A DNA stretch of 64,000 bases from a virus: IMG/VR virus record IMGVR_UViG_3300028895_000881, positions 1 to 64,000 of that record, one strand, 5' to 3'. Shown here in pieces: positions 7,204-7,418 of the stretch (positions are counted from its first letter, which is position 1; each line of letters starts with the position of its first letter). Below the pieces are notes generated by a model. It saw only the letters and a program-made list of their open reading frames with translations, made no database searches and was not told the DNA's origin. Made by a program: the position numbers and the translations under genes.

Positions 7204-7282
7204 TGGCGGGGCGTACGGGATTTGAACCCGTGACCTCCTACGTGACAGGCAGGCGTCCTAAACCTGACTAGACCAACGCCCC
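7204..7282 (-). tRNA. tRNA-Asp(GTC)
   Basis: CCTGC-CTGTCAC-GTAGG anticodon arm, G73, CCA end. Confidence 0.9.
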
Positions 7283-7398
7283 ATGCTGGCGGAGCAGACG
7301 GGACTTGAACCCGCGACCTTTCGGCTGACAACCGAGTGCGCTACCAACTGCGCCACTGCTCCGTACAGATCTCGATCATCGCTATCGTCGCTATCCAT
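7258..7398 (-). CDS. Asp-rich leader mini-ORF MDSDDSDDRDLY... running through tRNA-Asp
   Basis: Consensus SD AAAGGAGG 6 nt before ATG 7398; 6 Asp codons in the first 10; frame continues through the first tRNA-Asp and stops inside the second. Confidence 0.65.
   Translation of the reverse strand: MDSDDSDDRDLYGAVAQLVAHSVVSRKVAGSSPVCSASMGRWSSQV
7287..7362 (-). tRNA. tRNA-Asp(GTC), second copy
   Basis: CTCGG-TTGTCAG-CCGAA anticodon arm, G73, CCA end. Confidence 0.9.
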
Positions 7399-7418
7399 GG
7401 TTGTCCTCCTTTCGGTGT

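Follow-up and report, generated by a model that had tools for sequence, protein, structure and literature searches.

An Asp-rich leader frame abutting a tRNA-Asp gene in a phage tRNA operon: a candidate sensor of Asp decoding

Introduction

What is a short open reading frame (ORF) with a strong ribosome-binding site doing immediately in front of a tRNA gene, and why does it hold no stop codon before the tRNA begins? The question is raised by a tRNA operon in the viral record IMGVR_UViG_3300028895_000881 of IMG/VR, where an Asp-rich frame, here called the Asp leader, ends exactly at the first base of a tRNA-Asp(GTC) gene. The window analyzed here comprises positions 1 to 64,000, the first 64 kb of the 83-kb record; counts within the record cover all 83 kb. 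The original prediction for this locus was a negative-feedback switch, in which fast ribosomes unwind the precursor tRNA and stalled ribosomes let it fold and be cut by RNase P. Known charging sensors, such as attenuators and T-boxes, regulate biosynthetic and synthetase genes. To our knowledge, control of a tRNA gene by the charging or availability of its own product is absent from the textbook picture. The Asp leader and its codon layout are kept in diverged relatives, and a paralogous leader built on Ile codons precedes tRNA-Ile in the same operon. These observations suggest that the leader may time the decoding of the amino acid whose tRNA lies behind it.

Anatomy of the Asp leader

The Asp leader lies on the minus strand, between a tRNA-like element and the first of two tRNA-Asp genes. 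Its Shine-Dalgarno sequence, AAAGGAGG (7405-7412), is separated by a 6-nt spacer, ACAACC, from an ATG at 7398-7396. The ATG and the 11 codons that follow it (7363-7398) encode the peptide MDSDDSDDRDLY. These codons are GAT AGC GAC GAT AGC GAT GAT CGA GAT CTG TAC, six of which specify Asp (five GAT and one GAC), and the final TAC abuts base 1 of tRNA-Asp(GTC) copy 1 (7287-7362, minus strand; found by ARAGORN and by Rfam RF00005 at 65.6 bits). The original prediction had described a Shine-Dalgarno sequence, six spacer nucleotides, an ATG and Asp-rich codons directly before tRNA-Asp(GTC), and every one of these elements is correct, on the minus strand. Its further claim, that the frame stays open across this tRNA and stops in the second tRNA-Asp, is borne out as well: the frame reads through copy 1 and ends at a TAG (7258-7260, minus strand) in the D region of copy 2 (7204-7282, minus strand; ARAGORN; Rfam 64.9 bits). 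Copy 2 has no leader of its own. The two Asp tRNAs carry the same anticodon on very different bodies, and the leader-proximal copy has an unusual anticodon loop, with T at position 32 and G at position 38.

The leader is rare within the record. Among 128,697 stop-free 12-codon segments in the six frames, four contain five GAT codons, and all four are this Asp leader. The motif AAGGAGG-N4-9-ATG occurs three times in the 83-kb record, both strands together. Six Asp codons among 11 non-start codons compare with an Asp content of 6.25% in 46 long ORFs (binomial p = 2e-5). Two of the three frames of tRNA-Asp copy 1 are open. The open frame across the tRNA therefore says little when taken alone, since two of three frames would be open in any case and the position of the stop varies among relatives.

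Conservation of the leader among relatives

Relatives of the locus comprised two IMG/VR contigs, retrieved with the tRNA's 5' half as query, and 13 metagenome contigs, found with a degenerate D-arm-plus-anticodon pattern. Every one of the 16 sources with this tRNA-Asp, the window included, has an ATG frame that extends exactly to the first tRNA-Asp. Two contigs are truncated here, so that one (L005) lacks the first base of the ATG and another (L007) the Shine-Dalgarno region. After the removal of identical copies, 10 distinct Asp leaders were left, with the peptides MDSDDSDDRDLY, MEDDDDADDSY, MNIENDDCDDVDDTY, MDDSDDSHDLY, MPDDDDSDDTY, MDSDDADDSDDIH, MNTDTNITNDSVPDTN, MDEDSDTHDTY, MNNNDSDDADDIY and MNSNDSDDADDMY. 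Their lengths are 11, 12, 13, 15 and 16 codons, all in phase 0 to the tRNA 5' end.

Each of the 10 distinct leaders has the ATG, with NAC as its final codon. Counting back from the tRNA, codon -3 is GAT in 10 of 10 and codon -6 is GAT in 9 of 10. A purine-rich ribosome-binding motif at proper spacing precedes the ATG in all nine distinct leaders with upstream sequence; it contains GGAG in six and is a purine run of the AAGGA or AGAGA type in the remaining three. Insertions and deletions are always whole codons, and the sequence between the fixed points drifts toward Asp, Ser, Asn and Thr codons. GAT and GAC exchange with each other among the leaders, and amino acid composition is stable despite diverged nucleotides. 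Units of 9 nt are repeated in tandem in some leaders, as GATAGCGAC twice in the window and as GATGAY-NNN three times in relative L003. In relative L004 the two Asp tRNAs have changed places, and the leader still stands ahead of whichever comes first. A broader motif search found an 11th variant (L025) ahead of a different tRNA-Asp body. It reads AAAGGAGG-N8-ATG GAT GCA CCA GAT GAT TGC GAC GAT CGT AC, followed by the tRNA, and its frame stops in the D loop. The start signal, the abutment and the Asp-richness thus outlast heavy sequence change, as would be expected of a conserved and translated mini-ORF tuned to the tRNA that follows, and the original prediction is partly supported.

Outside this lineage, the degenerate D-arm-plus-anticodon pattern did not find the tRNA-Asp variant among 185,579 prokaryote genomes, and megablast against cultured phages returned matches to tRNA-Met only. 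Four of 20 blastn matches in cultured phages were examined as controls. Three of these were tRNA-Asp loci, in Frankenweenie, Psa21 and Pumpernickel, whose tRNAs are the most similar, and none of the three has an Asp-rich frame within 100 nt upstream. In Erythrobacter phage R6L no tRNA is annotated at the match, where the anticodon loop has CAT. A generic pattern (DDxDD, 3-12 nt, canonical tRNA-Asp anticodon loop) matched 26 viral contigs with one true variant, L025, and it is narrow, so that absence from other lineages does not follow from it. At the other 25 matches ARAGORN finds no tRNA, and they were taken as coding sequence.

Codon signature and the paralogous Ile leader

A second leader of the same design lies further along the operon (6977-7028, minus strand). 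It begins with AGGAAGGAG (7028-7020), has its ATG at 7012-7010 and encodes the peptide MEIESDISDIIS. A single base (T, 6976) separates its last codon from tRNA-Ile(GAT) copy 1 (6899-6975, minus strand), and its frame stops at a TAG (6955-6953) in the D loop of that tRNA. Eight of the nine segments with three ATT codons in the record lie in this Ile leader, which is the densest ATT cluster. Seven distinct versions of the Ile leader are known, one of them in the window; all are in phase 1, and ATT stands at codon -3 in 7 of 7. A scaffold of AGC-GAC-X is common to the Asp and Ile leaders, where X is the cognate codon. The two Ile tRNAs (6899-6975 and 6808-6886) share an anticodon on very different bodies, and the leader-proximal one starts with C1:G72 in all seven relatives.

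The codons chosen for the cognate amino acid run against the preference of the phage, which uses GAC for 62% of Asp codons (GAT 38%) and ATC for 81% of Ile codons (ATT 16.5%). Asp accounts for 53 of 116 non-start codons in the distinct Asp leaders, compared with 6.25% in the 46 long ORFs. These Asp codons are GAT 36 times and GAC 17 times, against 38% GAT in the genome (nominal binomial p = 1e-5), whereas the other NNY codons of the same leaders end in C 47 times and in T six times. In the Ile leaders, ATT outnumbers ATC by 14 to 5, against 16.5% ATT in the genome (nominal p = 6e-8), and Asp is written as GAC 20 times and never as GAT. The difference in GAT and GAC use between the two leader families gives a nominal Fisher p = 5e-8. 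In the two leaders of the window, 8 of 10 cognate codons end in U (GAT 5 of 6, ATT 3 of 4). The pattern persists in the most diverged members (L007, L008, L012 and L025).

The bias is limited to the cognate amino acid, and therefore a general pull toward A or U does not explain it. GAU is read through a G:U wobble pair by tRNAs with a GUC anticodon. Since the rare U-ending wobble codon is given to the cognate amino acid alone, the pattern points to selection on decoding. Such a pattern is predicted by selection on decoding speed, and an untranslated RNA motif would not readily produce it. A queuosine sensor, in which all NAY codons would be enriched, is not supported: the U bias concerns Asp only, and AAC (11:0), TAC (8:0) and CAC (3:0) are exclusively C-ending in the Asp leaders.

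None of the 17 distinct Asp and Ile leaders has a stop ahead of the tRNA. Their stops lie at +20 to +297 from the tRNA start, and together with L025 these leaders read at least 19 nt into the tRNA. For the Asp leaders, the stop lies at +84 to +297 among relatives and is not conserved.

Proposed working of the leader

The Asp leader may time the decoding of Asp codons, GAU above all, and couple this speed to the yield of the downstream tRNA-Asp, a reading to which a probability of about one half is given. Because diverged relatives keep the Asp-leader design, it is probable that ribosomes use this site to measure how much charged tRNA-Asp is available and adjust tRNA output. The anatomy, the conservation and the codon bias of the leaders are observed directly, whereas translation of the frame, competition of the ribosome with tRNA folding and the negative sign of the feedback are inferences.

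Under this reading, ribosomes would load at the strong Shine-Dalgarno sequence within the polycistronic pre-tRNA transcript. When Asp-tRNA is plentiful, the 11 codons would be crossed fast and ribosomes would enter the tRNA sequence. These ribosomes would keep the acceptor and D arms unwound, and folding and 5' cleavage by RNase P would be delayed or lost. When Asp-tRNA is short, ribosomes would wait at the repeated GAY-GAU pairs, and the tRNA would be transcribed, folded and cut free. As a delay timer, the leader would exert negative feedback, in a race against the completion, folding and cutting of the 76-nt tRNA. In the same operon, the cassette with ATT in place of GAT would gate tRNA-Ile, and a leader covering several amino acids would act at the operon head.

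No intrinsic terminator-like site was found on the minus strand between 6400 and 9600. Similarly, no sigma-70 promoter was found near the leader on the minus strand, in a scan that does not cover phage-specific promoters. Pairing between leader and tRNA, compared with 100 dinucleotide shuffles per leader, is not above the shuffles in 16 of 17 leaders (window z = +0.76), and only L009 stands out (z = -6.5). Minimum-energy folds pair the Shine-Dalgarno region with the 3' acceptor strand in several relatives, and attenuator-like pairing of leader and tRNA was rejected as a conserved feature. With no terminator and no conserved leader-tRNA pairing, the ribosome itself is the only evident effector. 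When codon -3 is in the A site, about 12-14 nt separate the first base of the P site from base 1 of the tRNA, which then lies where the mRNA channel opens. Codon -3 would therefore be the closest point at which a ribosome can wait without intruding on the tRNA. The competition between ribosome and RNase P that was originally predicted fits this geometry and is favored here in its kinetic form.

A broader proposal, held more tentatively and at somewhat less than even odds, is that ribosomes gate tRNA biogenesis. The translating ribosome and the tRNA fold, together with RNase P, would compete for the same RNA in a modular cassette, which could be retuned by placing the U-ending codon of any G34 tRNA at -3 and -6 (Asp and Ile, possibly His and Met in relatives).

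Several points weigh against decoding control by the Asp leader. A ribosome parked at codon -3 would itself cover the site of RNase P cleavage. The sequence therefore does not reveal the direction of control, and stalling at this codon could block processing instead of permitting it. The stop position is not conserved, and hence nothing in the relatives shows selection for translation into the tRNA. In the Ile leaders, Asp and Ile have nearly equal shares (20 and 19 of 81 codons), so that acidity is partly a family trait and not wholly a cognate signal. The variant shared by L008, L011 and L013 has 3 Asp in 16 codons, with a weak purine run and no GGAG. The whole-codon length changes could be explained in part by slippage of the 9-nt repeats. 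Finally, the p-values for the codon bias overstate independence, because the relatives are phylogenetically linked.

Alternative explanations

The alternative closest to decoding control keeps the codon sensor and changes the effector. Here, a stalled ribosome would be a roadblock or shield against Rho or RNases that protects the transcription or stability of the downstream Asp, Val, Ile and Met tRNAs, and reading into the tRNA would be incidental. In the window, L002 and L003, the leader comes after a C-rich, G-poor and variable stretch of 45-70 nt, which may load Rho; the variable stop position and the lack of an intrinsic terminator on the minus strand agree with this explanation too. However, the leader in L008, L009 and L010 follows tRNA-Thr after a short spacer without a long C-rich tract, so that the tract is not a constant part of the system. 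A roadblock also leaves unexplained why the distance from the last cognate codon to the tRNA 5' end is fixed, and it is considered unlikely on balance. A somewhat smaller chance is given to an effect of the acidic N-terminal peptide itself, through intrinsic ribosome destabilization that would sense Mg2+ or energy or cause ribosome drop-off, with no role for Asp-tRNA supply. According to published work, consecutive negatively charged residues, N-terminal ones especially, stochastically discontinue translation (PMC9718836; 10.1101/2021.02.02.429294; PMC12673854). The Asp leaders are 46% Asp and the Ile leaders 25% Asp plus about 12% Glu, and drop-off before the tRNA would explain why a stop codon is dispensable. 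Peptide acidity, however, accounts neither for the GAT bias of the Asp leaders against the GAC-only usage of the Ile leaders nor for the rare ATT, and the Ile leaders have no long acidic run. Such an effect may well act alongside codon sensing.

The remaining explanations do without a sensor of decoding. The frame could go untranslated and be a conserved RNA or DNA element within the 5' leader of the pre-tRNA, such as a processing or protein-binding site made of GAU-containing 9-nt repeats, in which the purine run and the ATG are incidental. The tandem 9-nt units of the window and L003 and the nucleotide-level conservation of GAT at -3 and -6 are in keeping with this, but an in-phase ATG in 10 of 10 leaders and a properly spaced purine motif in 9 of 9 are not, and the changes between the fixed points are whole-codon changes toward Asp, Ser, Asn and Thr. 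The swap from GAT to ATT in the Ile paralogue tracks the anticodon of the tRNA behind it, and leader-tRNA pairing is no better than in shuffled sequences in 16 of 17 cases. An untranslated element is therefore judged improbable. Least probable by far is a functional acidic micro-protein, either a 12-residue peptide left after the RNase P cut or a 46-residue read-through product. The acidic composition is conserved, yet no stop is conserved, the tRNA-encoded part ranges from 28 to 99 codons as dictated by the tRNA sequence, and peptide length and sequence vary with the codon layout alone fixed.

Comparison with known systems

Leader-peptide attenuators include hisL, thrL, pheL, leuL, ilvL, trpL and pheM of the pheST operon. 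Like these, the Asp leader is a short ORF with its own ribosome-binding site and densely packed cognate codons, including tandem pairs (GAY-GAT here), and it presumably reads the supply of charged tRNA through ribosome speed. A rare or slow synonymous codon for the sensed amino acid is used in the leu leader as well. Unlike attenuators, the locus has no set of terminator and antiterminator hairpins, and the Asp and Ile leaders end 0-1 nt from the tRNA; since the last Asp-leader codon abuts tRNA base 1, there is no room for hairpins between them. The Asp leader also differs in lacking a stop codon of its own and running into the regulated RNA, in regulating the tRNA itself instead of a biosynthetic or synthetase gene, and in lying inside a tRNA array and not only at an operon head. 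The sensor half is attenuator-like, and the effector features that define attenuators are lacking.

Translational attenuation by stalled leader ribosomes is known from the erm and cat leaders, tnaC and secM. In these systems as in the Asp leader, the position of the leader ribosome would decide the fate of the RNA just downstream without a classic terminator switch. In those systems the nascent peptide responds to a drug, to free tryptophan or to secretion, and as a result a ribosome-binding site is exposed or Rho gains access. The Asp leader, by contrast, apparently senses a codon, and its output would be tRNA folding and processing. T-box riboswitches resemble the Asp leader as feedback elements that read the charging state of one tRNA species. 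T-boxes need no ribosome, as uncharged tRNA binds to them directly, and their targets are synthetase or amino acid genes. No T-box or other cis-regulatory Rfam family reached threshold in 5500-11500, where only tRNA (RF00005) was found, and no T-box match was obtained up to E = 10 in 7350-7720. A transfer-messenger RNA (tmRNA), ordinary or permuted, was rejected: ARAGORN finds none in the window, the models match only 17 nt of a T arm (E >= 4.3), and the leader ORF has a Shine-Dalgarno sequence and an ATG in front of a complete cloverleaf. No report of tRNA genes controlled by leader ORFs was found in the part of the literature covered by our search.

Other leader frames in the lineage

The phage lineage appears to use leader frames at several levels, with the Asp and Ile leaders as the internal, single-amino-acid type. 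At the head of the operon lies a leader ORF of 31 codons, MKRSTTELTTTTTAMVVVAVVRPIMGDTTSC (8614-8709, minus strand), which is kept in 7 of the 8 sources examined. It contains nine Thr, five Val, three Met, one Ile (ATT) and one Asp (GAT), and these five amino acids are exactly those of the tRNAs in the array downstream. The ORF is followed by GC-rich overlapping hairpins with no U tract. On the plus strand, a Lys-rich frame, MFCMKRKSKL (or MKRKSKL from an inner ATG; 9487-9553), stands ahead of four Lys tRNAs, and its stop abuts a hairpin. A similar K-rich end followed by a hairpin is present in L005 and L008/L013.

Frames with the layout of the Asp and Ile leaders were also seen ahead of other tRNAs in relatives. 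A tRNA-His frame of the L008 type has CAC CAT at codons -4/-3, and tRNA-Met(cat) frames have ATG at -3 in L005 and L006. These frames (L008 1478-1552 and 1601-1677; L005 2931-3003; L006 496-570) come from one or two lineages each and are leads only. The Met(cat) frame of L008 has ATA at -3, which raises the question of an Ile2-type tRNA. An Arg(tct) frame in L008 uses CGN and not AGA and was judged a chance occurrence, as were the frames reading into Trp, Tyr, Phe, Gly and Val tRNAs in relatives, which show no cognate enrichment.

Genomic setting of the tRNA operon

The record has a GC content of 59.6% and a completeness of 16% by CheckV, and is therefore probably a fragment of a very large phage. 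The sequencing runs listed for the locus are 20 DNA runs from sediment, seawater and aquatic metagenomes, with no RNA run among them. According to ARAGORN, the minus-strand operon begins with Thr(TGT), Thr(CGT), an HNH gene, Thr(GGT) and the tRNA-like element, and continues with Asp, Asp, Val, Val, Ile, Ile, Met, Met and a second HNH gene. The four Lys tRNAs on the plus strand are divergent from it. The first HNH endonuclease gene (7708-8487, minus strand; Pfam HNH) lies inside the array, and its open frame overlaps tRNA-Thr genes; the second (5848-6594, minus strand) lies just past the array. A LAGLIDADG endonuclease gene (11847-12983, plus strand) is located near the tRNA region. All three resemble mobile endonucleases lodged there. 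A gene 5.6 kb from the Asp leader (13011-13676, plus strand) encodes a short release-factor-like protein of 221 residues with an RF-1 and a partial PCRF domain. A leader cleaved by RNase P would be a stopless message, and any link to this RF-1/PCRF gene is speculation.

The tRNA-like element consists of an acceptor stem and a T arm (7423-7492, minus strand) and lies 10 nt upstream of the Shine-Dalgarno sequence of the Asp leader. It has no normal D or anticodon arm, is labeled tRNA-Thr(ggt) by ARAGORN and falls below the Rfam tRNA threshold; its best Rfam match is mascRNA, a weak one (E = 0.1). The element is also present in L002 (6748-6821), where, as in the window, it may mark a processing site and so define the 5' end of the leader RNA. 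The C-rich, G-poor variable stretch, which has a rut-like composition, comes after conserved GC-rich hairpins in the interval from tRNA-Thr(GGT) to the Asp leader (hairpins and stretch: window 7493-7620, minus strand; L002 6822-6985; L003 750-1045). About 14 CAC repeats occur in this stretch in L002. Spacers rich in CA or (CAC)n before the Thr-like element were considered as Thr leaders and rejected; they have no start codon or Shine-Dalgarno sequence and were treated as spacers.

Implications for phage tRNA supply

For annotation, the locus cautions that a short frame within a tRNA array may have a function. If decoding control by the Asp leader is true, a minimal element of some 55 nt could let translation act back on the maturation of tRNAs without any specialized RNA switch, and the element would be a compact, retunable part for the synthetic control of tRNA levels. 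Large phages could in this way balance their own tRNAs or switch them on upon depletion of those of the host. Together with the leader at the operon head and the Lys leader, the Asp and Ile leaders would form a two-tier, per-amino-acid homeostat of the tRNA pool of a giant phage, and this homeostat could also report depletion or cleavage of host tRNAs during infection.

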